A program made the translations under genes and the position numbers. This document shows positions 19,910-40,909 of a stretch of DNA of 64,000 nucleotides, one piece after another. The DNA is taken from assembly GCA_022508825.1 (NCBI GenBank), contig JAFLUI010000002.1, positions 14,140 to 78,139 on the forward strand, given 5' to 3'. This DNA comes from Oscillospiraceae bacterium. Its GTDB lineage: Bacteria; Bacillota; Clostridia; Oscillospirales; Ruminococcaceae. The notes under the pieces were generated by a model that saw only the letters and a list, made by a program, of their open reading frames with translations, made no database searches and was not told the DNA's origin. Every line of letters begins with the position of its first letter. Within the stretch, counting starts at the first letter, position 1.

Positions 19910-20846
19910 TTTCGGCAGATTTTATATTTTTCTAAAAATCTGCGATATTCCGCCTGATGCGAGGGGTACAGGAATCCCTTGCCGGACGTGTGGCGCTCCT
20001 GCATATGTCCCCCTTATCACAGCGAGAAATTACAGGAGCAAAGTGTATACCATTCACCACAGACTTTGACAAGCTCCTTGAAGAAAGCAAAAGCTTCACC
20101 GGAATTACTGTCCCCGAACTGTTTAGCCGTATCTGGACAGGCTCCATGCCGGGAATTGTCAGCGGTCAGTATCCTGACAGAAATATTTACTACTCATCCT
20201 ACCTATCCACTTATGCAGAACGTGATGTGCGGGATATTTCCGCCGCTGTGGATGCGCTGAAATTCAACAGATTTATCACAGCCGTTGCTGCAAGAACGTC
20301 ACAGCTTCTGAATTACAAAGCCCTTGCAGATGATGCAGACATTGATCTGCCGACTGTAAAGGTTTGGTTAAATATTCTTGAAACACTGGGAATAGTTTTT
20401 CTGCTGCACCCGTATTCAAATAATGTATTGAAGCGGACTATAAAGACTCCTAAGCTGTATTTTTATGACACAGGACTGGTCTGCTATCTGACAAAATGGT
20501 CATCCCCTGAGATTGCCGAAAGCGGTGCCATGAACGGAGCGCTTCTTGAAAATTTCGCAGTATCGGAGATCATGAAGAGCTATCAGAATTCCGGACTTGA
20601 ACCGTATCTGTACTTCTACCGTGACCGGGACTCCAAAGAGATCGACGTTATCATAGAAGGAGACGGTATGCTTTGTCCAATTGAGATCAAAAAGACTGCC
20701 ACTCCTGACAAACGTCTTGCCAAAACATTCGATGTCATCAACAGATTACCTCTTAAGCTGGGAACGGGAGCCATTCTCTGCATGGCAGAGAAGTTCAGTG
20801 CGTTTGACAAGGATACTTTGATAGTGCCAATTGGGATGATATGATC
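19910..20846 (+). pseudogene. 5'-truncated copy of the DUF4143-type AAA ATPase gene found at 21494..22723
   Basis: 19955-20846 aligns with 21834-22725, with 15 aa differences over 295 codons in the ORF track. 19910-19943 aligns with 21378-21410. About 423 bp carrying the promoter, start codon and P-loop (21411-21833) is replaced by 11 nt. Confidence 0.85.
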
Positions 20847-21314: not shown

Positions 21315-21420
21315 CACTGAGATCAGTGTTATGCGTTCCGTTTTTTGAGCGTTCACCAATATTACCAATCTTATTATTTCGGCAAATTTTATAAATTTCT
21401 AAAAATCTGCCGAAAATCTA

Positions 21421-21449: not shown

Positions 21450-21493
21450 AATATAAAATGAAACATTGGACTTCAGCTATTCGGGGGTGTATT

Positions 21494-22723
21494 ATGAGAT
21501 ATATTGAACGTCATATGGAGGATCGAATACTTGATTTGAGTAAATCATACTCCGCAATACTTCTGACCGGACCTCGTCAAGCAGGAAAGACAACAATGCT
21601 CCGATCCCTTGCAGAAAAAGAAAATATCGGTCGTGAATATGTATCTTTGGACGATCTTACAGAACGTGATATGGCAAAGAACGACCCCAATCTATTTCTG
21701 CAGCTGCACAAGCCGCCGGTACTGATCGATGAAATACAGTACGCCCCGGAGCTGTTCACATATATAAAGATCCACATTGACGAGGAGCATAATCCGGGAG
21801 ACTTCTGGGTGACAGGGTCACAGATTTTTCGTTTGATGCGTGGTGTGCAGGAATCTCTTGCAGGACGTGTGGCGCTTCTGCATATGTCTCCCTTATCACA
21901 GCGAGAAATTACAGGGGCAAAGTGTATACCATTTACCACAGACTTTGACAAGCTTCTGGAAGAAAGCAAAAGCTTTACTGGAATTACTGTACCTGAATTG
22001 TTTCGCCGTATCTGGACAGGCTCTATGCCGGGAATTGTCAGCGGCCAGTATCCCGACAGAAACATTTACTACGCATCTTACCTTTCAACCTATGTAGAAC
22101 GGGATGTGCGGGATATTTCTGCCGCTGTGGATGCACTGAAATTCAACAGATTCATTACAGCTGCCGCTGCAAGAACATCCCAGCTTCTGAATTACAAAGC
22201 CCTTGCAGATGATGCGGACATTGACATGGCAACTGCAAAGGCATGGTTAAATATCCTTGAAACACTGGGAATAGTTTTTCTGCTGCACCCCTATTCAAAT
22301 AATGTATTGAAGCGGACTATAAAGACTCCGAAGCTATATTTTTACGACACAGGACTTGTCTGCTACCTGACAAAATGGTCATCTCCGGAAGTTGCCGAAA
22401 GCGGTGCCATGAACGGAGCACTTCTTGAAAATTTCACAGTATCTGAGATCATGAAAAGCTATCAGAATTCCGGACTTGAACCATATCTGTATTTCTACCG
22501 TGACCGGGACTCCAAAGAGATTGATGTTATCATAGAAGGTGACGGTATGCTTTGTCCCCTTGAGATCAAAAAGACTGCCACTCCGGACAAGCGTCTTGCC
22601 AAAACATTTGATGTCATCAACAAATCACCGCTTAAGTCGGGTACGGGAGCTATTCTTTGCATGGCGGAGAAATTCAGTGCATTTGACAAGGATACTTTGA
22701 TAGTGCCAATTGAGATGATATAG
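21494..22723 (+). CDS. AAA-family ATP-binding protein with C-terminal DUF4143-like domain
   Basis: Walker A LTGPRQAGKTT and Walker B VLIDEIQ. ATG at 21494 with GGGGTG upstream; the tracked ORF starts at 21458. Confidence 0.75.
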   Translation: MRYIERHMEDRILDLSKSYSAILLTGPRQAGKTTMLRSLAEKENIGREYVSLDDLTERDMAKNDPNLFLQLHKPPVLIDEIQYAPELFTYIKIHIDEEHNPGDFWVTGSQIFRLMRGVQESLAGRVALLHMSPLSQREITGAKCIPFTTDFDKLLEESKSFTGITVPELFRRIWTGSMPGIVSGQYPDRNIYYASYLSTYVERDVRDISAAVDALKFNRFITAAAARTSQLLNYKALADDADIDMATAKAWLNILETLGIVFLLHPYSNNVLKRTIKTPKLYFYDTGLVCYLTKWSSPEVAESGAMNGALLENFTVSEIMKSYQNSGLEPYLYFYRDRDSKEIDVIIEGDGMLCPLEIKKTATPDKRLAKTFDVINKSPLKSGTGAILCMAEKFSAFDKDTLIVPIEMI

Positions 22724-22915: not shown

Positions 22916-25900
22916 CTAAAATATACGATGAATAATTTCCAAACTTAGGCAATCTAACTTTGCAAGAATATTTTCTAAATTATCATCTTCTTGTCCGGGT
23001 CTGCATCCATTAGGCCAGTCACCTTCTAACTTAGTCTTGTTTTGTAGCAACTTCTCCACATATAAGTATTTCCATTTTGCAAAATGTAATGCGCTCAAAT
23101 TTTTTGCTAGATCCTCTCTTTTTATTAATTGAATACTGGGTCTATGTTTTACCCAATATCCATCTTGACAGTAATGAACAAAATAGCAAACTAAATGAAT
23201 AGGTGTTACAGCAGCTGCCACAATGCAAATTAGAGCAAAAATTATTCCGAATAAGTCTTTATAATTTTTAAAAATCACCCAAAAAGCAATCGTAATTGCT
23301 ATTGAACAAATCAGTTTGATGAAATTAATTAAAAATACCCTTTGTTTTAGCAATTTAATATAAAGAATAAATTGGTTAAGTAATTTAGTAAAAGATGTAC
23401 ATCCTTTTGATAAATTAATAACTATTTTCTTAAATAAATAATAAAAATCATGCACAAATATTATCAATTGCGCTGCATTAAAGGAAATTACACATAAAAT
23501 AATAGCTAAATATATTACTACAGACCATTCTGGTGCATTCAGCAGTATCCCAAACATAACTATTCCCGGGAAAAAAATACTAGAAATTATAAAAAATATG
23601 TTATCTACATATTTACCTTGCCTATATATATGATGGTGTGTAATAATATAAATAATAAAAATTATTTTTGTCGCATAATTTAAAATATCATCGTAAAAGT
23701 TTACAATATGCAATGGTGTCACAGTTTTTTGAATACTCCAACTTGAATCTATTAACTTGGTCAATAATATAATGGCGCTAACGCCTACTGTAACCATCAT
23801 GGATATATATTTCATAAAAATACACAAATGGACAATTTTTACATACCTAAAACTCTTGGAAATAGATAATGAAAAATGTGTATTTTTGTACCGTTTTAAA
23901 AAAGTGGTCATTTTCATAGTAAAAAAATATGTGGAAAATCTTGTTTCAACACGATTTTCCAATTTATGAATCAACCGACAATTTTGTAATATCAAATCAT
24001 TTAACCAACGGTTTTTTAAACTAAAAATCTTAAGAATTGCATCATGCATATTTTGTTGATCAAATAGAACCATGCTATTAGTAAAAGCAATTAGTATAAC
24101 AAAATCCGTATCATCATTTATACTCTCAATTATCAATTGTTCAAATTCTTTGATAAAATCCGACAAAATATTTTGGCGATTACGAAAGGCTTCTGACATA
24201 AAGTTTAATGTATTCACAAGTTCTATACTGCCTTTATTTAGAATGCTATTCCTATAAGAAATATTATTTTTAATCACATCCCAACAGTATCTAGCAATCT
24301 CATAAGCTTTTGCATCGTTAGTTACCTCACAGTATAAAACAAGTGCATCTCTCATTCCGGAACCATTAATAATGCCATTGTACTCGTCATCTCCAATATC
24401 TTGATGCTGCTCCATAATGCTTTCCACCAAGAAAAATTCTTGAAATCTGCGATGAACAAATGAAACACTTCCATTAATTCCTCCAAACCTACATATTTTT
24501 GCATATTCTAAAATCTTGATGGCTTTCTGCCAGTATTCTTTAAATAATCCATTAGACTGCTGATATAATTCATAAATTGGACATTCCAAACCATACTTGG
24601 GTGATTCCTGAAAAAAGGCAGCAAGTCTTTTGGCTGCTTTATGTACATCTTCTTTTGAGAAGTCTTCACTTTCTATCTTTCCTGCACACTTATTTAAACG
24701 GCCATCAACAAAATTACTATATAAATCCATTTGATTTTTAGGGAAAACTATACCTTTTTCTTTTATAAAATTGATTAATAATGTCAAGTAAAAGGGATTC
24801 CGACATAGTACTACAAGATCTTCTCTTTTTCCAAATAATTCTTTAACAATTTCATCTGCATTGTTCAAATATTTTTCCAGCATTGTTTGAATTTTGATAT
24901 CATTAAATTCTTGTATACGAAGAATAATAGTCGGTCTAATTGCCTCAGAGGGAGCTTTATACAATCTAGATGCTACGACACCACCACTTTGATTATTACC
25001 TGTCATAAACTGAAATAATATCTCAGAAATATGATCAATTAGTTCCTGACAATGCTGTTTACCCATTAAACATGGCATCTCATCAAAAGAATCAAAAATG
25101 AAATACCACCGTCCATCTTCTAGCATACTATCAAAATAACCATTCAAAAATCCATCTGTAAAAAAGTCACCATTTTCATAAAGTTCTTCTTTCACAAATT
25201 CTATCAAATCATTTTTATTCGGTAATTTATTTATGTTCCAATTTTTATTCCATTTTTTTAGGTTTATATAGACAGGAATTTTTTTTGTCTTTTTAGACTC
25301 ATCCAAAAGTTCAAGACATAGTTTTCTCAAAGAGACACTCTTACCTGCGCCTGGATCTCCTAGTACTAAAAAAACATCTGCTCCATGCTTAGTTTTTTTC
25401 AGACATTTTAATAAATCTGAATACTTCTTTTTACGTCTTCCTTTAACATTTACTTCCACCTCTGCTTCAATGGGAGTAAACAAATTTTCGTTCCAATCTG
25501 TTTCTCTATTTAATGTTTCTAACCGTTGCCGAAGTGCATTACAAAATGCCATACTTTTTTCAGAAAAATTTTTTTCACGAAAGATCGGATTTTCATTTCC
25601 TTTATGAATTCCAATAGCTGTTCTATCCTGTCCATAAAATACTAATATGATAATAAAAAATATCCAAAACAGAACAATAAGTGCCGTTTCGTTTCCAATA
25701 TTATTAGGGCTATCAATTCCTATCTTATTACACAAAGAATCAATAATATTATTGTATAACTGACTGACAAATGAAGCAAATTCAGTTTTTGAAAACGCTT
25801 TACATATTCCTGTAAGACAAGGCTCTGCCATAAATAAAATCGTACGCATTCCTTCATTCTCTAAATTTCTCACTAAGAGAAAAGCAGATACAAACAATAT

Positions 25901-26011
25901 GAAACACAAGCTAATAATTTGTGCTTCACTTTCACTAAATACACCAAACGATAACGCTATAGCAATGATCATCGCTATTAGTGCCGCTAACCATATGATA
26001 TTTTTTTTCAT
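22916..26011 (-). CDS. Membrane-embedded NACHT/STAND NTPase (N-terminal TM helices, NACHT, helical region, C-terminal multi-TM domain)
   Basis: Walker A VLGDPGAGKSVS, Walker B WYFIFDSFDEM, and the NACHT-type motif LCRNPFYLTLL. About 3 hydrophobic helices precede the NTPase and at least 6 lie in the last ~330 aa. Very AT-rich. An alternative start lies at 26020. Confidence 0.7.
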   Translation of the reverse strand: MKKNIIWLAALIAMIIAIALSFGVFSESEAQIISLCFILFVSAFLLVRNLENEGMRTILFMAEPCLTGICKAFSKTEFASFVSQLYNNIIDSLCNKIGIDSPNNIGNETALIVLFWIFFIIILVFYGQDRTAIGIHKGNENPIFREKNFSEKSMAFCNALRQRLETLNRETDWNENLFTPIEAEVEVNVKGRRKKKYSDLLKCLKKTKHGADVFLVLGDPGAGKSVSLRKLCLELLDESKKTKKIPVYINLKKWNKNWNINKLPNKNDLIEFVKEELYENGDFFTDGFLNGYFDSMLEDGRWYFIFDSFDEMPCLMGKQHCQELIDHISEILFQFMTGNNQSGGVVASRLYKAPSEAIRPTIILRIQEFNDIKIQTMLEKYLNNADEIVKELFGKREDLVVLCRNPFYLTLLINFIKEKGIVFPKNQMDLYSNFVDGRLNKCAGKIESEDFSKEDVHKAAKRLAAFFQESPKYGLECPIYELYQQSNGLFKEYWQKAIKILEYAKICRFGGINGSVSFVHRRFQEFFLVESIMEQHQDIGDDEYNGIINGSGMRDALVLYCEVTNDAKAYEIARYCWDVIKNNISYRNSILNKGSIELVNTLNFMSEAFRNRQNILSDFIKEFEQLIIESINDDTDFVILIAFTNSMVLFDQQNMHDAILKIFSLKNRWLNDLILQNCRLIHKLENRVETRFSTYFFTMKMTTFLKRYKNTHFSLSISKSFRYVKIVHLCIFMKYISMMVTVGVSAIILLTKLIDSSWSIQKTVTPLHIVNFYDDILNYATKIIFIIYIITHHHIYRQGKYVDNIFFIISSIFFPGIVMFGILLNAPEWSVVIYLAIILCVISFNAAQLIIFVHDFYYLFKKIVINLSKGCTSFTKLLNQFILYIKLLKQRVFLINFIKLICSIAITIAFWVIFKNYKDLFGIIFALICIVAAAVTPIHLVCYFVHYCQDGYWVKHRPSIQLIKREDLAKNLSALHFAKWKYLYVEKLLQNKTKLEGDWPNGCRPGQEDDNLENILAKLDCLSLEIIHRIF

Positions 26012-26068
26012 ATAAACCATCCTATACTTTTAATACATACCTTATTACTCATACGATATGCTACGCTA

Positions 26069-27148
26069 TTATTCCTTTTTTGACTGATTTCTCTCAATAA
26101 CATCCTTTAATTCACTAAGGGTCATTATGTAGTTTTTCTTGTGATGTATCATGCGGTGACAGTTTGAACATAAGCAGATCATATCATTCACCGGATCAAC
26201 ATTTGTTTCTCCATCAAGAGTATGAAGCGGTTTTATATGATGAACTTCTATAAAGTTTTCACCAAGTTCATACATACTCTTAAAGTCGAAACCGCAAGCC
26301 ATACAAGTATACCCATGTGCTTCTATAGCAGCTTTTCTGTTTTGCGGATTTCGTTCATATCTTCTTCCATAATGTTCTATTTTTCGTCCTTCGGTACCGA
26401 TCCTGATTACAGTAGTTTCCAAATCGTCTGAATTCAACAATTCTTTTATTTCAATTTCAGGCTCGGTATCGTCAATATCACCCATCATCCATACAAAAGA
26501 GTGAGCATCTATCAATTCAGCAGAGCGGTCAATGTCAGCCGCCAGCTTTTCCTGCACCCACTTCATAATTTCCAGAAATGTCTGATAGTTTTCCCATGTA
26601 CATTCGGAAAGGCAGTCTGTTTCAAAACCAAGTCTTTTAAATCTTTCCCTGAATTTATCCGGTCTTGCCGGGACGTATTTTGTACAGTCCTTTATAAAGA
26701 ACAAAAAAGAAAGCAATGGAAATTTTTTGCCCCACAGTTCTATAGCTTCACCAAATAAGGCTTCATCTTTACCATCGGAAGTAAAAAGCCTGTACAAAAT
26801 ATCTTCAGATTTATACAGATGATTTGAAAACTTCTTTTCAATATCATATGTAACATCTCGCCAGTTCAAAAGGTTCTGTTGTATACTGTCAACACGCATT
26901 TTCATAACAGAAAGTACTTTCTTAGTTATCTCTCCTGTTCCGACCATATCAGCAGACCATGAGGGAATACCAAGAATACGCTGTGCCTTATCATAAATAT
27001 CACGCTTGTACCATTCCTGATATCTGATATATCCGGAGGAAAATGAAATTTCCATAGTCGGACAATTCCTTTCCGCCTGTTTCTTTAAAACTGCATCATA
27101 AAACTGTAAAAGACATCGTTGAAATCTCTCTTCGTTTGGAATAAACAT
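26069..27148 (-). CDS. HNH endonuclease with unknown ~270-aa N-terminal domain
   Basis: C-terminal GYTCMACGFDF...FIEVHHIKPL...NDMICLCSNCHRMIHH (HNH with CxxC pairs). The gene ends 48 nt upstream of the NACHT gene on the same strand. Confidence 0.75.
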   Translation of the reverse strand: MFIPNEERFQRCLLQFYDAVLKKQAERNCPTMEISFSSGYIRYQEWYKRDIYDKAQRILGIPSWSADMVGTGEITKKVLSVMKMRVDSIQQNLLNWRDVTYDIEKKFSNHLYKSEDILYRLFTSDGKDEALFGEAIELWGKKFPLLSFLFFIKDCTKYVPARPDKFRERFKRLGFETDCLSECTWENYQTFLEIMKWVQEKLAADIDRSAELIDAHSFVWMMGDIDDTEPEIEIKELLNSDDLETTVIRIGTEGRKIEHYGRRYERNPQNRKAAIEAHGYTCMACGFDFKSMYELGENFIEVHHIKPLHTLDGETNVDPVNDMICLCSNCHRMIHHKKNYIMTLSELKDVIERNQSKKE

Positions 27149-27225
27149 TTATACCTCCAATAATTGTTTTGCAAATGTTGCCGCCTTAGCTTCCATTAAA
27201 AGCTAAATCATTGCTGTATAAATCA

Positions 27226-27254
27226 AGTATATCACAAAAACAGCTATTTTTCAA
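27226..27254 (-). promoter_or_regulatory. SigA-type promoter for the HNH-NACHT gene pair
   Basis: On the minus strand: TTGAAA (27254-49), a 17-nt spacer, then TG-n-TATACT (27231-26). Confidence 0.5.
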
Positions 27255-27370: not shown

Positions 27371-27406
27371 AAAAAATAAACTCTCCTCATGAGATCACGA
27401 GAAGAG
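27371..27406 (-). terminator. Rho-independent terminator after the mob module
   Basis: Minus-strand CUCUUCUC...GAGGAGAG, an 8-bp stem with one G-U pair, followed by UUUAUUUUUU. Confidence 0.55.
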
Positions 27407-27422
27407 CAATACCACAATATGA

Positions 27423-27590
27423 TCACTTAGCCTGTTCAGAGGCTGATTCACTATCCTTATTTTTTTCATACTCCGTGATTGCGTTCCTGAGCTTTTTACA
27501 TCCTACCTCGGTAAAGACCTTCATAAGCATATTATATGTATCTTTTTCCGAGTTGGGGTTGTGAAACCTGAATGTCAGCTTCTGCTGCAT
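27423..27590 (-). CDS. Small hypothetical protein (55 aa)
   Basis: Not in the ORF track because it is under 60 aa. ATG with AAGGAG 8 nt upstream. Translation MQQKLTFRFHNPNSEKDTYNMLMKVFTEVGCKKLRNAITEYEKNKDSESASEQAK. Sits downstream of the relaxase fragment. Confidence 0.45.
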   Translation of the reverse strand: MQQKLTFRFHNPNSEKDTYNMLMKVFTEVGCKKLRNAITEYEKNKDSESASEQAK

Positions 27591-27727: not shown

Positions 27728-28171
27728 TTAACTTTGAGAACCAAAAACCTGCTCGCAGATTTCGTGTAATGCTCGTCTTATACCTTCATCGTCTGTAAGC
27801 CTCGAACCGTCAAGAAAGCTTATGGTATTTACCATAAAATGTGTATGAATATTTGGTGTATCCGAATGTACGCAGAACACTACCTGATGCTTGTAAAAAT
27901 AAGAAGCTATGTATGAGGATATCCTAAACATAGCTTCATCTGATATATTAGCGTCCGTTGACAGCGAAATGATGATATGCAGCAGTTGCCTGCCGTCATC
28001 CTTACCAAACAACCTTTTGACGTGCTTCATCATATATATGGCTTCTTCCGGTAAGGCATTATAGCATCCTGTCAATCCATATGTCTTTACCGAACGGCTC
28101 ATATACTCATAGAGCGTTTTTATTGCGTCAGGATTCGTGTACGGTCTGTCTACTAATTTAATATACCACAT
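27728..28171 (-). CDS. Relaxase/mobilization nuclease domain protein, short (147 aa; probably truncated)
   Basis: MobA/VirD2-type pattern: LLHIIISLS..., then the histidine triad region VFCVHSDTPNIHTHFMVNTI. Full relaxases are usually several hundred aa long. Confidence 0.6.
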   Translation of the reverse strand: MWYIKLVDRPYTNPDAIKTLYEYMSRSVKTYGLTGCYNALPEEAIYMMKHVKRLFGKDDGRQLLHIIISLSTDANISDEAMFRISSYIASYFYKHQVVFCVHSDTPNIHTHFMVNTISFLDGSRLTDDEGIRRALHEICEQVFGSQS

Positions 28172-28437
28172 ATATTCATAACTCCTTCCTCAAGTGCTTC
28201 GCAGATCTCAGGGTAATCGTTTCCAGCAATTTCATAAACCTTGTTTACGGCATTGCTCAGAACGGATAGCCTTGCAAAAACCTCCTGTTTCATCTTCAGT
28301 GCATCTGCTGAATCTGACTCCATAAGTCTCTGTCTGATGTAGCTGCTCATACTCATGTTGCATAAATCGGCATCATTTACAACCTGCTCGTACTGCTCAT
28401 CGCTCAGTCTGACATTAATTTTTCTTTCTTTAGACAT
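28153..28437 (-). CDS. MobC-like ribbon-helix-helix relaxosome accessory protein
   Basis: MSKERKINVRLSDEQYEQVVNDADLCNMSMSSYIRQRL is typical of MobC/RHH proteins. Overlaps the relaxase start by 19 nt. Confidence 0.6.
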   Translation of the reverse strand: MSKERKINVRLSDEQYEQVVNDADLCNMSMSSYIRQRLMESDSADALKMKQEVFARLSVLSNAVNKVYEIAGNDYPEICEALEEGVMNICGILN

Positions 28438-28743
28438 GGTAATCATTTCCTCCTTATATAACATTTATATGATTGTATTGATACTCGTACTGTGCACCTA
28501 AAGAACCAAAATTACTCCAAAACACGTAAATCATGCCTGTCATTACAATTGGATATAAATATTATTCTTATTCTCATTACAGTTAGAGTACCTTAGCAAG
28601 GCAAGCTGTTTTTGTATCACAACTTGCTTTACCACTATGTAATTGTGGGAGTAAAAAGTTACATAAGCCCTCCATAGGGCACTTGAGTTGATCTAATATA
28701 TATCAGTGACCATATACTGAGAGATTCTTATATAAAATATTAC

Positions 28744-28772: not shown

Positions 28773-28904
28773 AGGTATAAAGTTCTATAAAATTATTATC
28801 ATATAATCGCAGCTATATAGCCTATTTTCTTAAGAAAAAACTGATTTTTTTGTAGACATACGCGTTTTTTAGACATACAAAAATTGTCAGATAGGAGCAC
28901 GCCT

Positions 28905-31208
28905 GTGGAATATTATGAAATTTTAAGATGCATACCTGAACCAAGTAAAAAAGATTCTGTACTTGAGCCTCCCAAGATGCCAAATTACTCCAATAAAGAT
29001 TTAGATAAATTTATTGAAAATCCAGCGGCTTTGCGGGGAAAATATGTAAACTTGCGGCAGAAGCTTGTCGACATATATGAGCATTGTTTTCAATATAATG
29101 AGATCATTCTTAACAATCCCAGCGTAAGTATACTAATGCAATTAATACGCATTAAGCTAATTTCTCCACTTTTTCAACTAGATTATAAAGAATTTGGAGA
29201 AATATTAAACGAAAAATTATATGTATCTTTAGAAACCAAAATTGTAAATACCAAATTATGTTACATTTCGTCATACAATAACAATGTTTATTACTTCATA
29301 AATAACAATATATTGACTTCACGTTCTTTAAGTAAGAATGAAGTTTTAAAAAACATTTCCAAAACTGAACACATACTGGCTTTTGAAAAAGCCTATAACA
29401 TCTTTTGTAAATTTTTGGAAGCGTTTACTAGAGATGATGAGAGTAAGACAATGAAATATTTTATGTATTTTATTGCAAATTATAAAGTTGACAAAAAACA
29501 ACCAACTCCAGATTCTATTTGGGGTTATTTACCAGACCCGTATTTTGCCTTTGGAATCAGTGAAAAAATTACATTTATCCCCAGCACAAATCATCAAGCC
29601 AACTACATTTTAATTGATAAAGAGTCGAAAATATTATTTAATCATGATATGTATTCAGTTGGCAGCTGCTTTTTTAACAATTTTTTGCAATTAAAAATTA
29701 AGGAGAAAGATAAAAAAGCTTTCAACAATATGCTGATTTTGATTTCCAAAATAGTGGGGAAACGATGCAAAAACTTTTCAAAACCATCTTATACAATACA
29801 TTATGATATCTATGATTTAAACAACTATACATACAAATTACAATTTGAAAATTCAACAGTTGATATAACAATAAATGATAGGACATTTGTACCAGATAAT
29901 CTTACTGAACACCAACACTGGAACCCATTTCGTCCAATTGGAATTCTAAATAGCAAAATATTGCAGACAGTAACTGATAATTATAACCCCGAGACGTTAT
30001 ACCAATATTTACATTCTATGGCTTTTGATGCTTTAGATCCCCATCAAATCGATAATATTTCTAAAATGCTGACTATGACATTAATGACATCACATGACGA
30101 GCACAAGGTGGTTATAGTAACTTGTAATTCTAATAATATCTCAGACATTAAAAAATTTTTCACAGGCATAATATGCTCCGAAGAGGCACATAATCTGTCT
30201 GTAATTGATATGAATATTGATATCAAGGAAATAACTCATAAAGACTTTAAAAATAATCTTTGTCAACTTAGCTGCACCAATACAAGAGCTATATTTTTTG
30301 ATCATTTTGATGATAAATTAACAAAGGGTACACTAACTAATTTAATACAGGCACAAAAAGATACACATATGCAGATTATGGTCTTTCAAACCTCAAGAGA
30401 TGTCAGCTATATATCAAATGACAATTTTATACATATAAATTTATCTGACTGGAAAAAGAGGGAAGATATACATGAACTTGATAATTACAACGCACTATGG
30501 GGAAGGCTTTACCTTTCCTTGTATGGACTTCATTTGATTTTCAAAGAAAAAAAGGATAAGTATCGATTCCCACTTGCAGGTGAAAATCTTATAATTGAAG
30601 ATAGTGTCTCAATCATAGTAAGAGACGAAATAGTTGCAAATATAGCTAATGAGTTTATTGAAAAATGTTTTATAGACATTGATGAAGCCAAAAAGCGAAA
30701 AAAAGAACGGCGCAAAGAAATTGCCAAAATAAAAAAAGAAAATCCAGGTGCATCAAATGATACTATTGAGCGCTTAATTAACAAAACACCTTTATTTTCA
30801 ACATATGATGAAGATTTTAAAGTGTATGCAGATACATATTTAGACACACAATGTCCCAAAAGCGTTGTTTCAGCACATACAATTACAAATAAAGACATAA
30901 AAAAATATATAATGAAAAATTATAAAAAAACTTTCAAGCATACACAGATAAACGCAATGTACACTGGTCACGATAACAAAGCTATGGGCTTCCAATATCT
31001 AAGTTTAAAAGAACCGTGGGAAATCACGGAGAAGCAGCTGATGGAAACTAATATAAACAAGACTCCAGATATTGATGAACAAATACAGACAAAACTAAAA
31101 AATTTGATTGAGGTATTGCCTAAAACCATTGATTTCAGTAAGTTGATAGCTACTCCACCTCCAAGTATTCGTATAAAAAGAACACCTGCATCCTCTGATG
31201 AAAATTAA
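28905..31208 (+). CDS. Large hypothetical protein, no recognisable motif (orphan)
   Basis: Long uninterrupted, very AT-rich ORF. The tracked start is TTG at 28884. The in-frame GTG at 28905 has AGGAG 7 nt upstream and is preferred. No P-loop or catalytic motif seen. Confidence 0.6.
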   Translation: MEYYEILRCIPEPSKKDSVLEPPKMPNYSNKDLDKFIENPAALRGKYVNLRQKLVDIYEHCFQYNEIILNNPSVSILMQLIRIKLISPLFQLDYKEFGEILNEKLYVSLETKIVNTKLCYISSYNNNVYYFINNNILTSRSLSKNEVLKNISKTEHILAFEKAYNIFCKFLEAFTRDDESKTMKYFMYFIANYKVDKKQPTPDSIWGYLPDPYFAFGISEKITFIPSTNHQANYILIDKESKILFNHDMYSVGSCFFNNFLQLKIKEKDKKAFNNMLILISKIVGKRCKNFSKPSYTIHYDIYDLNNYTYKLQFENSTVDITINDRTFVPDNLTEHQHWNPFRPIGILNSKILQTVTDNYNPETLYQYLHSMAFDALDPHQIDNISKMLTMTLMTSHDEHKVVIVTCNSNNISDIKKFFTGIICSEEAHNLSVIDMNIDIKEITHKDFKNNLCQLSCTNTRAIFFDHFDDKLTKGTLTNLIQAQKDTHMQIMVFQTSRDVSYISNDNFIHINLSDWKKREDIHELDNYNALWGRLYLSLYGLHLIFKEKKDKYRFPLAGENLIIEDSVSIIVRDEIVANIANEFIEKCFIDIDEAKKRKKERRKEIAKIKKENPGASNDTIERLINKTPLFSTYDEDFKVYADTYLDTQCPKSVVSAHTITNKDIKKYIMKNYKKTFKHTQINAMYTGHDNKAMGFQYLSLKEPWEITEKQLMETNINKTPDIDEQIQTKLKNLIEVLPKTIDFSKLIATPPPSIRIKRTPASSDEN

Positions 31209-31288: not shown

Positions 31289-31846
31289 TTATTTGCCAGC
31301 CTTAACCCTCCTATAAAACGCACTTTTACTCATGCCTACCCTGTGCATAAAATCAGTGGCAGTAATTTCCTTAGCAATCCACTTGTCATACAGGACATTC
31401 CATAGCTGCTCGTTCACGGCAGTTGGCTTTCTGCCCTTGTACTTACCGTTTGCCTTTGCCACTGCTATACCCTCTTTCTGGCGATCCAGAATGTAGCCAC
31501 GTTCAAGCTCGGCAACTGCGGCAAATACTGTCAGCATAAACTTTCCAGCAGGAGTAGTGGTGTCAATGCTTTCCTTTTTGCTTACGAACTCCACTCCCTT
31601 TGCTGTGAAAATGTCAACAAGCTCCAACAGATCACGGGTGTTGCGGGCAAATCTGGAAATGGACTCAACGATAACCGTGTCTCCGGAACGAACAAAGCCC
31701 AGCATTGCTTTAAGCTGAGGACGTTCCTTTGACTTTCCGGACATCTTGTCAATGTATATCTTTTCCACTCCAAGCTGTTCCATGATGACCTCCTGTCTTG
31801 CGGTATTCTGTTCCTCTGTGGAAACCCGTATATATCCGACTTTCAT
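31289..31846 (-). CDS. Small serine recombinase (resolvase/invertase family)
   Basis: 185 aa. N-terminal MKVGYIRVSTEEQNTARQ contains the catalytic Ser. C-terminal HTH. Confidence 0.9.
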   Translation of the reverse strand: MKVGYIRVSTEEQNTARQEVIMEQLGVEKIYIDKMSGKSKERPQLKAMLGFVRSGDTVIVESISRFARNTRDLLELVDIFTAKGVEFVSKKESIDTTTPAGKFMLTVFAAVAELERGYILDRQKEGIAVAKANGKYKGRKPTAVNEQLWNVLYDKWIAKEITATDFMHRVGMSKSAFYRRVKAGK

Positions 31847-31975: not shown

Positions 31976-32902
31976 TCAGTACATTTCCATCATTTTAAGC
32001 TCTGCAATGCTGTCCCTCATTAAACCCGGCTTGTAGAACATTTCTTCGATCTCCAACTCGTCATAGCCGTAATCCACCAGCATAATTACATCTTCTTCCG
32101 GTATACCAAAATATCCGGCATACTCTATCAACGTATCCATAGTACCGTCATAGTAAGGACTTCTATGGAAAAAGCCGTATCCTCCATACCAATCAGGGAA
32201 ATCAAACTGCTGCACTTCTATCACTCCGCTTGGGTCGATCCTCAGGATGTCACCGCAGGACACGTTCACCTTGCTATAATTTGTCAATCCCAGCTTCTTT
32301 ACAACTCTGCTAAGAATTTCGTCAGTGCTTGCATACATATAAAAGCCATTGAACTTGTAAAGTGCCATAGGATTGTCGCCTTTCACTATGTACAGATTGT
32401 TATGACCGTCAAGTATGGTATAACAGAAAGAACCCTCGGTTTTCTCTGCCATCTTTCTGATGGAATCAAAACCGAGGGTATTTTCTTTCTCTATAAGCTG
32501 TACGGCAACGTAGCTGTCCGTCTGGATATGTGTATGCGGTAGCTTTTCCTCATTGCGCAGCATGATGTCATTATGCAGGACACCATTATGCGCAAGGGCA
32601 AATTTCAGCTTGTCGACCTGTCCCGGAAATGGATGATTGTTGTAGTTGAACTTCTCGCTGCCCTGAGTAGTCATTCGGGTATGTCCCATTATTACCCTTG
32701 CATCATCAGGTATCTTATACCACATTTTATGAGCTGCAACGGGTCTTTTATAGATATGCATACCTGAGCAGGTATTGAAAGCTATCCCTGTTGCATCAAT
32801 GCCACGGGCTTCACATTCCTTTGAGAGTACACCGATAATTCTGTTTTTGCTCCGGGTCGAAAAGATATTGCCGTAGTCGATCAATCCAAATAAACAGCAC
32901 AT
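31976..32902 (-). CDS. Class II (Ntn-type) glutamine amidotransferase domain protein
   Basis: Starts MCCLFGL, giving Cys directly after Met as in Ntn amidotransferases. The ATG lies 1 nt after the amidoligase stop, and GAGGAGG sits within the upstream gene's end. Confidence 0.65.
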   Translation of the reverse strand: MCCLFGLIDYGNIFSTRSKNRIIGVLSKECEARGIDATGIAFNTCSGMHIYKRPVAAHKMWYKIPDDARVIMGHTRMTTQGSEKFNYNNHPFPGQVDKLKFALAHNGVLHNDIMLRNEEKLPHTHIQTDSYVAVQLIEKENTLGFDSIRKMAEKTEGSFCYTILDGHNNLYIVKGDNPMALYKFNGFYMYASTDEILSRVVKKLGLTNYSKVNVSCGDILRIDPSGVIEVQQFDFPDWYGGYGFFHRSPYYDGTMDTLIEYAGYFGIPEEDVIMLVDYGYDELEIEEMFYKPGLMRDSIAELKMMEMY

Positions 32903-32903
32903 A

Positions 32904-34010
32904 TTAATATTCCTCCTCACACTCTACCGGTTCGTTTACGTAAAGTCTGCGTTCTTTCAGATAGGTAATAAGCTCCGGTTCCTCAACGCCTGAAACAAAG
33001 TCGCACCAATTCATCAGGGTCATTTCTTCATCCGTCATCCGTGCGGATATATCACATATCCGGTTTACAAGCTGCAGGGCTGCAACAAAGGTATTGTATT
33101 TGAGAGTACCACGGAAAATACGGAACTCTATAGTTTGACTGTTTGTAAGATTAACGCAGGTATAACGTCCGGAATAGTTTTTCTTTGCATTATCAAAGGT
33201 AGCTTTGGGATTTTCCTTGATACCGTATCTTGCCGCCCATCGTGAAAGCTGACTTTCGGTGCGTCTTGAAAATTTAAGAAGCTCCTGCCAGAAACGTTCC
33301 ACAAAGAACAGCACCCTTGAAATGCACGCTTCCTGTTCCTCATGGGTATCGCCAAAGGATGAACGGTTAACATGGATATGCAGTCCGCAGGTTTTTGTTT
33401 TGTGGGAACGATAGCCAAGAGAGGCTGCCTTTCTCATAACATCAGCCCACGGCATTTTGTTAAGATGGTAATCAAGGGACATTGGATGGGTAACGATCTC
33501 CATTCCATCGTTAAGGCTGCTGTCACGCTTTATGTATATACGTCTTGTACTGTCGGCATTAGCAATGTCGATAATCTTTTCCGCATTTGAAGCATACTGG
33601 CCACCTCCGTCAATTTCAAGCTCCACACCAAAATACCGGCTGCTGCTGCCATAAAAGATCGGATCCGGTTTAAAGCTGTAGTCGTGGATATATTCGCCTG
33701 AATCGTGCCTACAATAACAGTTATGGCAATATGGATTATCAGGCTCATCATCCAGATAATAAGCGTCTTCAGCATGAATTGTTCTTCCGCAGTCCTCGCA
33801 GTCTGTATAGTATCGGGTATAGCATCTGTCACAAAGAATGTGATTGCTGTCTCCGGCAACATCGTCAGCCCATATCCTGTCGCCGCAATGACTGCAAATT
33901 ACAGTCTCATCGTCATAACATTCCTGACAGATCTCCTCTCCGTCAAAAGTTTCCATGTCATCAAGGCTGCAGGTGTATCCGCAATGGCTGCATATAAAAG
34001 TATCACTCAT
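32904..34010 (-). CDS. Amidoligase-family (glutamine-synthetase-like) enzyme with N-terminal multi-CxxC zinc-ribbon region
   Basis: At least five CxxC pairs in the first ~110 aa. Then YFGVELEIDGGG, DSSLNDGMEIVTHP and TCGLHIHVN, as in the Amidoligase_2 family. ATG at 34010 with AGGAGG upstream. Confidence 0.65.
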   Translation of the reverse strand: MSDTFICSHCGYTCSLDDMETFDGEEICQECYDDETVICSHCGDRIWADDVAGDSNHILCDRCYTRYYTDCEDCGRTIHAEDAYYLDDEPDNPYCHNCYCRHDSGEYIHDYSFKPDPIFYGSSSRYFGVELEIDGGGQYASNAEKIIDIANADSTRRIYIKRDSSLNDGMEIVTHPMSLDYHLNKMPWADVMRKAASLGYRSHKTKTCGLHIHVNRSSFGDTHEEQEACISRVLFFVERFWQELLKFSRRTESQLSRWAARYGIKENPKATFDNAKKNYSGRYTCVNLTNSQTIEFRIFRGTLKYNTFVAALQLVNRICDISARMTDEEMTLMNWCDFVSGVEEPELITYLKERRLYVNEPVECEEEY

Positions 34011-34462
34011 TTTTGATCTCCTCCTAAAATAAAGAATGGGCAAGTCCCAAAAGACTTGCCCGAAGCATTTGATATTTGTTTTCTGACTACATTACCTCCT
34101 ATAAAAAATAAGCCGCAGCATAAGCTACGACTTATTTTCGCTTCCGAGAATGACGTCAATTACTGCACACAGAATTGTGGCAATAGTAATGACCGCCATA
34201 TCTACGATTTTTGTTGCCATTTTCTCGGATATTGTGTTACCCGAAAACACGTCTGTAAAAAGATTTTATGAATGTCTCCAGTATGCTCTTGATCGTCCTC
34301 AACAGATTTTTCATCATATAGATATCCTCCTTTAATTTGATGAAGCTATGCTTCTCATGGATATAATATATGATTGAAAAATGAGGGTTTACATGGTATA
34401 GAAACAATATGATATATCACAGTTTACAATCATATATGTATAAATAGAAAAATGTAATTTGT

Positions 34463-34996
34463 TTATTTATTCTTCTTAAATTGCTTTTTAAACTCTGATT
34501 TTAGCATATTTACTCCCTTAGAAGAAGTTAGCTCTGAATCGTTTAACTTACCCATTTTTATTTGTTTACAAACTTCTATGAAAGCCTTACCCATAGCTAG
34601 AGTAATCACGCCCGCAGTTCCCCCTGAAATCATACCACCGACAACTGAACCAATTCCTGGAACAAATTTAAAAACATTCGACACAATAGTTTTTCCTATT
34701 ACTGTTGTCCCGCCAACTCCCAAAGCTGCTATAGCAAGAGTTTTAAGTCCATCTTTTTTTACATCAATTTTGAATATTCCTGCTATCGTAGCCATAAGTG
34801 CAACTTGTTCACCAATAAGTAACGGGGCATCTGCAAATGGGATCGGAACAGCGCCTGTGGCAGCCGTTGCTGCAACTGCCGCTGCGACAGCATTATCTGC
34901 TTTTTCAAGCATTTTCTTGATTTCCAGATATTTAAGTTCATCAATAAAGTCATCATCGACTCCCTCATTTTTTAAATTCTCATACTCGTTTGACAT
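34463..34996 (-). CDS. DUF697-like glycine-zipper membrane protein (gene D of the 4-gene operon)
   Basis: 177 aa. Hydrophobic Gly/Ala-rich helices (GAVPIPFADAPLLIGEQVALMATIAGIF and VPGIGSVVGGMISGGTAGVITLAMG). AGGAGG ribosome-binding site. Starts 18 nt after gene C. Confidence 0.6.
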   Translation of the reverse strand: MSNEYENLKNEGVDDDFIDELKYLEIKKMLEKADNAVAAAVAATAATGAVPIPFADAPLLIGEQVALMATIAGIFKIDVKKDGLKTLAIAALGVGGTTVIGKTIVSNVFKFVPGIGSVVGGMISGGTAGVITLAMGKAFIEVCKQIKMGKLNDSELTSSKGVNMLKSEFKKQFKKNK

Positions 34997-35014: not shown

Positions 35015-36457
35015 TTACATTGTAAAATAATTATAAATATCTTCTTGACTTCTTAAAATCCTGCTGCTGTCTACTCCTACCAATTCAGCAAGCTTAATTG
35101 AACCATCAAAAGCAATATTGATGTCAATATCGAAAGCTAAATCTACAGCTGATTTGAATTCCTTGAATTTTTCCATAAGAAATTCGACCAGTTTTCTATA
35201 TTCATCATCAAGCTGTGCATTTAGCTTATCAATAGCAATATTATGCTCCTGAATGCATTGTTGTTCTTTCTCTAAACAGCATTCTTTTGCAATGCCATAC
35301 ATAAACATACCGGCAGCATTACCGATCATTGCACCAAGAACAGGAATAGGTATAGCTACCTGACCTAAAACAGAAGCTATTGCACTTATTGACACATCAA
35401 GGCAAACTGTTTCGGAATTAATAATAAATTCCTCATTATCAATATTTCCCTTTCTTAATTCATTTGCCTGAGAGACAACACCAAAGGCAGCCGTAACAAG
35501 TGCGGAAGCAACATTAGCGGGTGTGGCAGTAAAATTAGTAAGCGCATATACACTTGCTCCTCTTATACCACCTTTTGCTGTATCTATTCCAGTAGTTAAA
35601 CCAATCTCCTTCCAATCCTCAGCAGTAAATTCATTAAGTTTTTTTCCGGATTTTAATTTTTCCCTAACTGCCAGACAGAACGATACACTTCCCTCTAAAG
35701 CTGCACTTATAACAGTAGCTTTAGCTCCTTCTTTTAGTGTCGGTTTAGATGCTTCATATGCTTTATCACGCTGATTTTGATCCTCTTTCTTTATATTTGA
35801 TTCTTCTTTGGAAATTGTTTCTGATACTTTTCCTTTCTGCACCTCATCATATTTTGCAATGGATGAATTAAGATTTTTAGATATACTAAGTCCGGTATCA
35901 TTTTCAAATTGTTTTACTTTGTTTAATAAACTCCAATCCTCTTTACTTAATAATGATGGACTTTCATTAGCAAGTTTTATGACTCTGCTAATCTCTTCAT
36001 ATTGATCTTTCGGAATATCATAAGCACCGCCATCATTTATAAAATCCGGATATTTGAGTAAATGCTTTTTTATATGATTTAATGTATTTTCAGCGCCATT
36101 AATGAATTTCGATTGAATTGGCTGACCGTTTTTCAAATAATCTTCAGGTGCTGTTCTGCCAACCCCATCAAAAGTATATTCACTGGCTAATCCTTTAATT
36201 AAATTTCTTGCATTTGAAATATTTACCTGAATATGCTCTGCAATTTCTCCATGCTTTGTATCTGGATTTCCGAGAATATGACTTGGGTCACCTACAAACC
36301 GCTTTAGTTCGTCAAGTTCTTCAAGAGCTTCTAACAGATTTATATCCTGCTGTGTTAGCTTTTCTATCAATCTATCAAGCCTTAATTGATTCAAATGGTC
36401 TATCCAAGCTGCAGATGCTTGTTCTTGGGTACTTTTAAGTATTTTCTTACTATCCAT
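35015..36457 (-). CDS. Hypothetical protein: soluble N-terminal ~230 aa plus C-terminal hydrophobic helices (gene C)
   Basis: 480 aa. The C-terminal half carries helices such as VSISAIASVLGQVAIPIPVLGAMIGNAAGMFMYGIA, which share the (A/V)PIP motif with gene D. Starts 14 nt after gene B. Confidence 0.6.
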   Translation of the reverse strand: MDSKKILKSTQEQASAAWIDHLNQLRLDRLIEKLTQQDINLLEALEELDELKRFVGDPSHILGNPDTKHGEIAEHIQVNISNARNLIKGLASEYTFDGVGRTAPEDYLKNGQPIQSKFINGAENTLNHIKKHLLKYPDFINDGGAYDIPKDQYEEISRVIKLANESPSLLSKEDWSLLNKVKQFENDTGLSISKNLNSSIAKYDEVQKGKVSETISKEESNIKKEDQNQRDKAYEASKPTLKEGAKATVISAALEGSVSFCLAVREKLKSGKKLNEFTAEDWKEIGLTTGIDTAKGGIRGASVYALTNFTATPANVASALVTAAFGVVSQANELRKGNIDNEEFIINSETVCLDVSISAIASVLGQVAIPIPVLGAMIGNAAGMFMYGIAKECCLEKEQQCIQEHNIAIDKLNAQLDDEYRKLVEFLMEKFKEFKSAVDLAFDIDINIAFDGSIKLAELVGVDSSRILRSQEDIYNYFTM

Positions 36458-37314: not shown

Positions 37315-37400
37315 ATCCTTATCCTCCATTTTTTATTTACATCATTAGATGACATTTATAATAAATATCAGCATCAATGCTATTTGTAAATATGAGACAT

Positions 37401-40790: not shown

Positions 40791-40833
40791 AAGCTCCGTG
40801 AGTCTTTGGACGGCTCACGGAGCTTTTGTATTT
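40791..40833 (+). terminator. Rho-independent terminator after spoIIID
   Basis: AAGCTCCGTGAG (40791-802) pairs with CTCACGGAGCTT (40814-825), followed by TTGTATTT. Confidence 0.7.
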
Positions 40834-40909
40834 GCATTGACAAACCATGCCGCTAAGATATATAATATTTATAGCAATATTAAGTAAATTAAGGAGCCTT
40901 TTTACATGG
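40795..40909 (+). repeat. Copy A of a ~115-bp duplicated hairpin/promoter/leader cassette
   Basis: Near-identical to 41450-41564. Contains TTGACA (40837-42), an 18-nt spacer, TATAAT (40861-66), an AGGAG site and an ATG. Confidence 0.8.

Follow-up and report, generated by a model that had tools for sequence, protein, structure and literature searches.

Two adjacent genes on a mobilizable island

The window analysed here, a 64,000-nt stretch of an Oscillospiraceae genome, contains two co-oriented minus-strand ORFs that lie 48 nt apart in the ORF list and encode an HNH protein (gene 1) and a NACHT protein (gene 2; Table 1). Both genes are present at the sizes originally predicted (359 and ~1030 aa), with the expected motifs, TM segments and AT-rich composition. 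The real start of gene 2 is probably the ATG at 26011, since the NCBI model of a protein identical to its product has 1031 aa rather than the 1034 aa of the ORF; AGGA lies 8 nt upstream of this ATG, and a start there gives a gap of 57 nt between the genes. GC content is 27–37% at 23–31 kb versus 45–53% in the outer flanks of the window, confirming the AT-rich block. An integrated mobilizable island carries both genes as cargo and encodes a relaxase fragment, NikA, a resolvase and a large serine recombinase, in agreement with the horizontal acquisition proposed earlier. The island also holds the PADLOC candidates PDC-M09A/B (E 5e-100 and 1e-178) and PDC-S01; gene 2 sits between other defence candidates, and the likely defence context suggested originally was judged right.

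Transcription of the pair from one promoter had been predicted. No terminator-like site was found between genes 1 and 2, so a single transcription unit is plausible. The promoter itself fared less well: the site preceding gene 1 matches the consensus at 10/12 positions, and matches of this kind were no commoner than in shuffled sequence (31 versus 32.5 expected). A second promoter-like site falls within the 3′ end of gene 1, and a terminator-like hairpin lies between gene 1 and a small ORF and the mob region upstream.

Table 1 Features of the two-gene locus (window positions; residues are those of the encoded protein)
Feature	Residues	Position	Strand	Description
Terminator-like site		27380-27407	-	Hairpin + T-run
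Promoter-like site upstream of gene 1		27226-27254	-	TTGAAA-17-TATACT, with TG; consensus match only
Gene 1, HNH protein		26069-27148	-	359 aa; ORF + GGAGG ribosome-binding site
N-domain	1-240	26429-27148	-	All-alpha, about 240 aa; predicted DNA or modified-base reader
HNH nuclease domain	about 257-348	26105-26380	-	CxxC...CxxC zinc ligands + catalytic His
Second promoter-like site		26068-26097	-	Just upstream of NACHT gene; consensus match only
Gene 2, NACHT protein		22916-26020	-	1034 aa ORF; probable start 26011 (1031 aa)
N-terminal TM bundle	5-130	25631-26008	-	3 strong hydrophobic helices + 1 weak; hydropathy
NACHT module	about 150-540	24401-25573	-	Invariant columns, Foldseek, Pfam
Cytoplasmic helical region	541-720	23861-24400	-	All-helical, pLDDT 82-96, moderately conserved
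C-terminal TM bundle	722-958	23147-23857	-	About 6 helices, outer-side loops <=25 aa
NCH3 domain	960-1028	22937-23143	-	PF22729; predicted cytoplasmic

Gene 1, a predicted modification-dependent endonuclease

The gene 1 protein (AF2 model pLDDT 90.8) is identical to NCBI 'HNH endonuclease [Oscillospiraceae bacterium]' (P0121) and carries the motifs HHIKPL and CSNCHRMIHH. Pfam HNH (PF01844) matches residues 282–337 above its cutoff (30.7 versus 21.4 bits, E 3.5e-7), and C282, C285, H304, C327 and N329 are invariant. Its closest solved structure is Escherichia coli McrA (6ghc, E 1.9e-16), followed by TagI (6ghs) and then ScoMcrA (5zmm), and PADLOC mREase_IV matches the C-terminal part of the protein (E 9e-9). 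The N-domain, originally described as unknown, is without a family model: no Pfam or NCBIfam model matches it, and the Foldseek comparison proposed as a check returned no significant match for this domain in PDB or BFVD. It has 618 cluster representatives at E ≤ 1e-3, with conserved residues including K48 and a DAHSFxW motif. Among 104 proteins, the N-domain is fused to HNH_2 (38), NOV_C (31), HNH (22), HNH_5 (10), AAA_5 of the McrB type (3; for example, P0269) and SRA (2), and P0247 combines SRA, N-domain and HNH in one protein. Solely by the logic of these domain architectures, we infer that the N-domain reads a feature of foreign DNA, likely a modified base.

Relatives of gene 1 adjoin genes for GmrSD, SRA, DUF3427-helicase, McrBC, AbiH, ThsB and type I and III R-M systems, and some HNH-family loci have non-defence surroundings (L170 and L173). 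The domain build and the GmrSD, McrBC, SRA and R-M neighbours follow the same plan as modification-dependent (Type IV) restriction enzymes. Type IV-like enzymes of this kind require no methyltransferase, and none of the island ORFs scanned contained a methyltransferase domain. Gene 1 shares with McrA, TagI and ScoMcrA a C-terminal McrA-type HNH domain, an N-terminal non-catalytic domain, the lack of a methyltransferase partner and a location in defence islands; its N-domain, however, is unrelated in sequence or by Foldseek to their readers, including SRA, EVE/PUA and the sulfur-binding domain. Gene 1 is accordingly named here as a predicted stand-alone, McrA-like, modification-dependent (Type IV-like) restriction endonuclease, in which the N-domain would recognise the foreign-DNA feature and the HNH domain would then cleave the recognised DNA.

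Gene 2, a membrane NACHT protein of the NACHT+NCH3 family

The original description of gene 2 as an NTPase of the NACHT type with TM helices on both sides was borne out by motifs, fold and hydropathy. Its product contains GDPGAGKS, FIFDSFDEM and LCRNPFYLTLL; Pfam NACHT (PF05729) matches residues 216–387 at 25.4 bits, just below the 26.7 cutoff, and the AlphaFold2 model (pLDDT 77) matches NOD2, NLRP3 and NLRC4 by Foldseek (E 5e-9 to 1e-7). The NACHT module comprises Walker A (221–228), Walker B DSFDE (310–314), S351-R352 and a winged-helix motif, FVHRRFQEFF (521–530); Walker A, DSFDE, the winged-helix His and the NCH3 features are intact and conserved. The N-terminal TM helices predicted, about three, were recovered as three clear hydropathy segments (8–26, 35–53 and 112–130), with a weak fourth at about 58–79 that is seen family-wide, and the AF2 model places helices at 5–26, 30–51, 58–75, 80–100 and 110–130. 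Nearly all homologues have 2–4 such segments, and the bundle occupies the usual effector position of bacterial NACHT proteins. Residues 541–720 may form a sensor or HD2-like region. The C-terminal TM bundle is likewise present, although hydropathy counts 5–6 segments (between 734 and 944) where at least six had been predicted. It is found in nearly all full-length homologues, is modelled poorly (pLDDT 38–69) and shows the lowest conservation in the protein (top-residue frequency 0.17–0.25 versus 0.6–0.73 in the NACHT module). The NCH3 match is strong (E 9.8e-14, 51 bits versus a cutoff of 27; pLDDT about 90), with L991 and W1002 invariant, and the Lys/Arg counts of the loops agree with a topology of 4+6 TM helices that leaves NACHT and NCH3 inside the cell.

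We found 189 homologues, and 85 related loci carry the same layout of ~4 TM, NACHT module, helical region, ~6 TM and NCH3; the TM-NACHT-TM-NCH3 arrangement is conserved over many bacterial phyla and one archaeon. Membrane integration of the NTPase had been thought unusual, but it is an architecture conserved in a catalogued family, clade 8 'NACHT+NCH3' (Table S1 of Kibby et al., doi 10.1101/2022.07.19.500537). Like gene 2, clade 8 proteins have about 1000 aa, a NACHT module at about 180–550 with hydrophobic regions on either side, NCH3 at the extreme C terminus and a single-gene operon. Gene 2 aligns with the printed 399 aa of bNACHT13 of Klebsiella quasipneumoniae at 30% identity (BLASTP, E 4e-31), reaching the pre-NACHT region, and clade 8 entries in that table share organism and length with loci related to gene 2 from Duganella callida (L062, 1017 aa) and Acidobacteriaceae KBS 89 (L045, 997 aa). 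Homology and architecture, not a tree, place gene 2 in clade 8; it differs in no architectural respect and is a Clostridia (Oscillospiraceae) member on a mobilizable island. bNACHT13 is the sole clade 8 protein tested, against T2–T7, lambda-vir, M13, MS2 and Q-beta in E. coli, and its 'Phage Defense' cell is empty in Table S2 (Kibby et al.).

As originally supposed, the pair is not a named system: neither protein matches one in PADLOC. Avs/AVAST and other bNACHT proteins (for example, bNACHT01 and bNACHT25) resemble gene 2 in being STAND/NACHT switches on a single large polypeptide, with a shared expected logic of sensor input leading to oligomerization and N-terminal output; in gene 2, by contrast, TM bundles replace both the enzymatic effector and the TPR, LRR or other repeat sensor. 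PADLOC Avs or NLR models did not match gene 2, and the NCBIfam EruA score was 21 bits (cutoff 1000). A functional analogy comes from Tmn (YobI family) and KAP/PifA, single-gene membrane-integrated P-loop NTPases that join sensing to membrane-directed output but are members of other NTPase families; the two TM helices of Tmn lie within its P-loop domain, whereas the TM bundles of gene 2 flank the NACHT module, and no Tmn or KAP profile matched gene 2 in Pfam or PADLOC. Tmn recognises a phage protein, leading to Mg2+ export and plasmolysis; Tmn and PifA are among the membrane P-loop NTPases that protect against phage, and pore-forming membrane proteins occur among bacterial STAND effectors (PMC13001434).

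In the favoured reading, gene 2 would be a self-contained, membrane-resident NLR-like switch with its NACHT module and NCH3 facing the cytoplasm, a ~4-TM bundle before the module and a ~6-TM bundle inserted between the two. A trigger would free it from an ADP-locked state, NACHT modules would oligomerize as in other STAND/NLR proteins, and the clustered TM bundles may perturb the membrane (leak, ion flux or depolarization) and so stop infection.

Linkage of the two genes and rival explanations

The original prediction joined the genes into one module and named their co-occurrence in other genomes as a test. The census covered 85 gene 2-family loci (NACHT profile), 72 of them with 1.5 kb or more of sequence upstream, and 91 HNH-profile loci, including 16 with full-length relatives. 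No HNH-profile match lay near a NACHT-family gene within up to 6 kb (0/85), and no NACHT-family match was found at the HNH-profile loci (0/91); in the window itself, the positive control, both profiles match. The nearest relatives of each gene (51–61% identity) are without the other: the HNH neighbour is absent at the closest NACHT relatives (P0003, P0005, P0008 and P0009), and the NACHT neighbour at the closest HNH relatives (P0122 and P0125) and at P0129, P0131, P0135 and P0147. The identical pair is recorded on a single contig, and bNACHT13 is given as a one-gene operon (Kibby et al.). Since the genes are not neighbours in any other locus sampled, they are most likely two separate single-gene defence candidates; the neighbourhood conservation sought for the pair is absent, and a two-gene system is not supported.

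We thus consider it probable that an McrA-like Type IV enzyme and a membrane NLR-like NACHT+NCH3 switch lie independently side by side. A genuine, recently assembled two-gene system, in which infection sensed by the membrane NACHT protein would lead it to activate or recruit the separate HNH nuclease as effector, would fit the shared orientation, the 48–57-nt gap free of terminator-like sites, the promoter-like site and terminator preceding the pair, the lack of a recognisable enzymatic effector in the NACHT family and the fused HNH_2 or REase effectors of other NACHT clades (Kibby et al., Table S1). It is nevertheless very improbable given the census and the single contig, the complete reader-plus-nuclease build of gene 1, typical of autonomous Type IV enzymes, the promoter-like site directly upstream of the NACHT gene and the solitary state of the NACHT family everywhere. 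Gene 2 is a member of a widespread family without a conserved partner gene: neighbour clustering gave recurrent families at three loci at most, and the most frequent flanking domain, PIN, occurs in only 3/138 flanking ORFs.

Independence of the genes leaves the function of each to be weighed. The gene 2 family could be non-immune, a nucleotide-gated membrane signalling or homeostasis factor carried on the island by chance. This reading, which we regard as unlikely, is consistent with the absence of recorded defence by bNACHT13, with the many family loci that adjoin housekeeping genes (for example, CTP synthase, MurJ and EPSP synthase) and with TM bundles in which Pfam detects no effector or toxin domain; the family also had no match in the plasmid or phage collections searched, which makes its link to defence weaker than that of typical island genes. 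Against it, the distribution is patchy, with a single ORF per locus, in lineages scattered over many phyla and with unrelated neighbours each time, some relatives adjoin AriAB, DRT-type reverse transcriptases, PIN or HepT toxins, and the window copy lies among defence candidates in a mobile island. The TM regions diverge fast, and NACHT proteins from several other clades have shown antiphage activity in experiments (Kibby et al.). The functions given here to both genes are predictions from sequence, and the defence role, trigger and membrane-effector step of gene 2 are putative. For gene 1, a selfish or homing HNH endonuclease, or an island-maintenance nuclease, is very improbable. Homing endonucleases often have HNH domains, gene 1 is carried by a mobile element with mob genes next to it, and there are weak profile matches to IscB and group II intron maturase HNH domains; yet gene 1 is free-standing, with no intron, intein or host-gene insertion seen and no intron RNA found by Rfam, its relatives cluster with GmrSD, McrBC and R-M genes, its N-domain has recombined with SRA, McrB-type AAA_5 and NOV_C, and its top matches are McrA, TagI and ScoMcrA rather than homing enzymes.

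Genomic linkage of the HNH and NACHT genes

The original prediction treated the HNH nuclease gene and the NACHT gene as one two-gene system, a reading that depends on the pair recurring in other genomes. Profiles of the two families were used in a six-frame search of every fetched locus, with the window as positive control, in which both match. The NACHT profile matched in 85 loci and the HNH profile in 91, and the two never co-occurred (0/85 and 0/91 loci), so the proposed system is not supported. Sequence 5' of the NACHT gene spanned at least 1.5 kb in 72/85 loci and at least 3 kb in 61/85. The nearest relatives of the NACHT protein (P0003 at 58%, P0005 at 57%, P0008 at 61% over 70% of the query, and P0009 at 49%) all have unrelated neighbours. 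The nearest relatives of the HNH protein adjoin Type I R-M and ThsB-TIR (P0122, locus L004), AbiH and McrBC (P0125, L005), Type III R-M (P0125, L006), GmrSD, a DUF3427-helicase, NUDIX and SRA (P0131, L168), or SNF2 and GmrSD (P0129, L172); P0135 and P0147 (L170 and L173) have non-defence neighbours. A Paracoccus plasmid copy of the N-terminal domain (N-domain) of the HNH protein lies at the end of a type I R-M operon. The identical HNH and NACHT pair is on record in a single contig. The best reading is that the two neighbouring genes are independent pieces of cargo on a mobilizable island laden with defence genes, and since the two-gene reading fails, the pair carries no significance as a new two-gene system.

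The gene layout itself was predicted correctly: two minus-strand ORFs of 359 and 1,034 aa, in the same orientation and separated by 48 nt. The more likely start of the NACHT gene is the ATG at 26011, because P0001 ('MAG: Oscillospiraceae bacterium'), the database entry with 100% identity to the protein, has 1,031 aa and an AGGA lies 8 nt 5' of this ATG. The HNH gene has the ribosome-binding site GGAGG. The predicted single transcription unit is possible, as no terminator-like site lies between the genes; promoter-like matches are not enriched over shuffled sequence (31 observed vs 32.5), and a second one directly precedes the NACHT gene.

A membrane-embedded NACHT family

Pfam places NCH3 (PF22729) at residues 960-1028 of the NACHT protein (51 bits) and NACHT (PF05729) at residues 216-387, with a score of 25.4 bits that is marginally under the gathering cutoff of 26.7; the precomputed Pfam list of the identical protein P0001 does include PF05729. 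Motif conservation was read from a 35-sequence alignment. The Walker A motif conforms to GxxGxGK[ST] (GDPGAGKS, 221-228), with G221, P223, G224, G226, K227 and S228 invariant, as are Walker B (D310-S-F-D-E314), S351-R352 and the winged-helix motif F521-x-H523-R-R-F-x-E-x-F530 (FVHRRFQEFF here) with its histidine H523. Walker B fits the D[GAS]hDE signature that sets NACHT apart from other STAND clades (Kibby et al., doi 10.1101/2022.07.19.500537). The AlphaFold2 model (mean pLDDT 77, pTM 0.73) is of good confidence at residues 200-740 and in NCH3, and of poor confidence in the C-terminal membrane region; Foldseek recovers an NBD-HD1-WHD fold across ~600 columns, with matches to NOD2 (5irm), NLRP3 and NLRC4 at E values between 5e-9 (NOD2) and 1e-7.

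Hydropathy of this protein gives TM segments at 8-26, 35-53 and 112-130 in the N-terminal part and at 734-757, 808-826, 838-856, 895-913 and 923-941 in the C-terminal part. Family-averaged hydropathy adds weak segments at ~58-79 and 775-793, and loop Lys/Arg counts are compatible with a 4 + 6 TM topology. On this simple hydropathy, rather than a dedicated predictor, the cytoplasmic parts would be the N-terminus, NACHT module and NCH3, and the outer loops would have ≤25 aa. Conservation is lowest in the TM regions (top-residue frequency 0.17-0.31 vs 0.6-0.73 in the NACHT module), a fast divergence that could reflect relaxed constraint or an arms race.

A word-indexed search returned 189 relatives, most of ~1,000 aa with PF05729 and PF22729, and scanning a single genome of each species gave 80 NACHT-family loci in Firmicutes, Bacteroidota, Acidobacteriota, Cyanobacteria, Nitrospirota, several Pseudomonadota classes and one archaeon. 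Nearly all full-length copies have the same layout, in which 2-4 hydrophobic segments precede Walker A (near residue 220) and 4-6 more at ~730-950 precede a C-terminal domain. 'NACHT+NCH3' proteins are NACHT clade 8 in Table S1 of Kibby et al., and the C-terminal NCH3 on a ~1,000-aa NACHT protein found here is the layout of the clade-8 rows. Two entries of that table, Duganella callida WP_135201481.1 and Acidobacteriaceae bacterium KBS 89 WP_020712890.1, agree in organism and length with our loci L062 and L045, and the annotation of an entry from Vibrio parahaemolyticus reads NACHT+DUF2070+NCH3. The NACHT protein shares 30% identity (E 4e-31) with the 399 printed residues of bNACHT13, the tested clade-8 member, for which the 'Phage Defense' column of Table S2 has no entry (Kibby et al.). 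By homology and architecture, the NACHT protein adds a new member to a catalogued, functionally uncharacterised NACHT clade. Given the conserved layout of the relatives and the clade-8 listing, the membrane-embedded arrangement originally called unusual is therefore the norm in a known family. A literature search beyond Kibby et al. brought up no other papers that deal with bNACHT13 or NCH3, and the TM-NACHT-TM-NCH3 architecture is not described in Kaur et al. 2020 (PMC7159879).

No named system was found for either protein with PADLOC or NCBIfam profiles, and the PADLOC run agrees with the original prediction on this point. Against Avs and the NLR-like systems of PADLOC, the NACHT protein has no profile match, and PADLOC gives only mad8 at E 0.004. 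In Tmn and KAP membrane NTPases the TM helices lie within a YobI or KAP P-loop domain or immediately follow it, whereas the NTPase here is a NACHT module without a match to either (PADLOC and Pfam, E ≤ 0.1). Neither clustering of three genes on each side across the 80 loci nor Pfam and PADLOC searches of 138 flanking ORFs found a recurrent partner of the NACHT gene, and tblastn found no match to the family in plasmid and phage collections. At locus L003 (P0009), an MNT/HepT-type toxin-antitoxin pair (9154-9775 of that locus) lies directly 3' of the NACHT-family gene, and a GTPase-like gene and a zinc-ribbon gene lie 5' of it; these defence-like surroundings are not common to the other loci.

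The NACHT protein most likely acts as a self-contained membrane NLR-like switch. The N-terminal TM bundle occupies the effector position of bacterial NACHT proteins, and the helical region, C-terminal TM bundle and NCH3 occupy sensor positions (Kibby et al.). Trigger-dependent NACHT oligomerisation would then cluster the TM bundles and perturb the membrane. We infer this output by analogy to bacterial STAND proteins, some of which have pore-forming effectors, and to Tmn and PifA, which are membrane P-loop NTPases (PMC13001434). A defence role is weakened by the blank record of bNACHT13, by the many relatives beside housekeeping genes and by the absence of the family from the plasmid and phage collections. 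The family is large, spans many phyla and is catalogued but functionally uncharacterised, and its one tested member showed no defence; knowing the trigger and output of the family would reveal whether bacteria possess membrane NLRs whose action runs through their own TM helices.

The HNH protein and its N-domain

The HNH domain is of McrA type (PF01844), and its best solved relatives are, in order, Escherichia coli McrA (6ghc, E 1.9e-16), TagI (6ghs) and ScoMcrA (5zmm). The zinc cysteines and catalytic histidine of an HNH (beta-beta-alpha-Me) nuclease are intact, and C282, C285, H304, C327 and N329 are invariant. The model of the whole protein (pLDDT 90.8) shows the first ~240 residues as a confident all-alpha domain, for which Pfam, NCBIfam and PADLOC have no model. 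No significant match to the high-confidence model turned up in Foldseek searches of PDB and BFVD (best E 0.22 and 0.97). HhH-GPD glycosylases (MutY, OGG1 and EndoIII) recur in the PDB list and were rejected as fold relatives, with TM scores of 0.2-0.34 that are too weak.

The N-domain is widespread. A phmmer search of 1.84 billion cluster representatives with residues 1-240 as query returned 618 matches at E ≤ 1e-3 (>600 clusters at 50% identity), of which 489 reach E ≤ 1e-10. Among 104 of the matched proteins, it is joined to HNH_2 (38), NOV_C/DUF3883 (31), HNH (22), HNH_5 (10), McrB-type AAA_5 (3) or SRA (2), as expected of a shuffled targeting domain. Examples are P0247 (SRA, N-domain and HNH) and P0269 (N-domain and a McrB-like GTPase; NCBIfam McrB E 6e-37). 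The domain also stands alone in proteins of ~230-280 aa (about 277 aa at loci L093, L102 and L106; 231-238 aa in P0159 and P0242). A 403-aa ORF at locus L099 carries what appears to be a partial tandem duplication of the N-domain (profile positions 3-238, then 38-150).

A non-catalytic module shuffled among nuclease and NTPase partners is the signature of reader domains in modification-dependent enzymes of the McrA, McrBC, SRA and EVE types. Because it is shuffled among such partners, the N-domain is a putative reader of a modification-dependent restriction enzyme. No cognate methyltransferase domain was found among ORFs of ≥100 aa at 27.7-38.3 kb and 12.6-22.7 kb. The protein thus resembles McrA-like Type IV enzymes in its intact HNH, its separate shuffled targeting domain and the lack of a detected methyltransferase, and from its sequence is best read as a McrA-like enzyme with a widespread, unmodelled putative reader domain. 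It would act as an autonomous Type IV-like endonuclease, in which the N-domain recognises foreign DNA, most plausibly through a base modification, and the HNH domain then cuts the recognised DNA.

A bolder joint reading of the two proteins, which we consider rather unlikely, makes the clade-8 TM-NACHT-TM-NCH3 protein a complete membrane-resident pore-forming NLR with an in-membrane sensor, and the 240-aa N-domain a new class of modified-DNA reader. An activated NACHT ring would bring the 4-helix bundles of the N-termini together to form a pore or channel, as a bacterial counterpart of the plant resistosome, and the fast-evolving C-terminal 6-TM bundle would sense phage entry or lysis proteins within the membrane.

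The N-domain occupies the place of the reader in McrA-like, McrB-like and NOV_C-type enzymes; should it prove to recognise a specific base modification, it would widen the set of modification-dependent nucleases available as epigenetic tools. Both families are reasonable experimental targets.

The island and its cargo

The AT-rich block was confirmed, with a GC content of 27-37% over 23-31 kb vs 45-53% in the outer flanks, and the low-GC island that contains both genes extends over ~18 kb (roughly 22.8-40.8 kb). The island is an integrated mobilizable element with several defence-type cargo genes. A Clostridia host is indicated by the dockerin and LRR proteins in the vicinity and by the names of database entries.

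Features of the island and its edges in window coordinates.
Feature	Position	Strand	Remarks
DUF4143/AAA_14 ATPase (PDC-S01), full copy	21458-22723	+	PADLOC candidate system, E 3e-109; just outside island
NACHT gene	22916-26020	-	1,034 aa
Promoter-like site	26097-26068	-	directly 5' of NACHT gene
HNH gene	26069-27148	-	359 aa
Promoter-like site	27254-27226	-	5' of HNH gene
Terminator-like hairpin	27407-27380	-	5' of HNH gene
55-codon ORF	27424-27590	-	after relaxase ORF; ends just before terminator-like hairpin
Relaxase fragment (147 aa) and NikA	27728-28464	-	mobility genes
774-aa ORF, very AT-rich, TTG start	28884-31208	+	no Pfam or PADLOC match; divergent from NikA/relaxase genes
Resolvase	31289-31846		mobility gene
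Amidoligase (PF12224) and glutamine amidotransferase genes	31976-34043	-	cargo pair; overlap by a few bases
DUF697 protein	34463-34996		near amidoligase/glutamine amidotransferase pair
PDC-M09 B	35015-36457	-	PADLOC candidate system, E 1e-178; no Pfam match
PDC-M09 A	36472-37329	-	PADLOC E 5e-100; no Pfam match
Partial PDC-M09A-like paralogue, third ORF	37401-38288	-	E 2e-19; no Pfam match
HTH regulator	38557-38910		mobility gene
Large serine recombinase	39085-40734		mobility gene

The relaxase ORF comprises the nuclease domain only and overlaps NikA; because of this and its length of 147 aa, the mobilization capacity of the island may have been lost. A direct-repeat search for the island boundaries gave no clear att sites, and Rfam and tRNA scans of the window returned nothing. 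A 115-nt direct repeat of 84% identity (40802-40916 and 41458-41572) lies just past the large serine recombinase gene and may be related to the right end of the island; a left-end counterpart was not found. Next to the island, a second, 5'-deleted DUF4143 copy without the AAA_14 part stands in tandem with the full one (19957-20844, plus strand). The two copies share 89-91% DNA identity, and a 34-nt element lies 5' of both, at 19910-19943 and 21377-21410.
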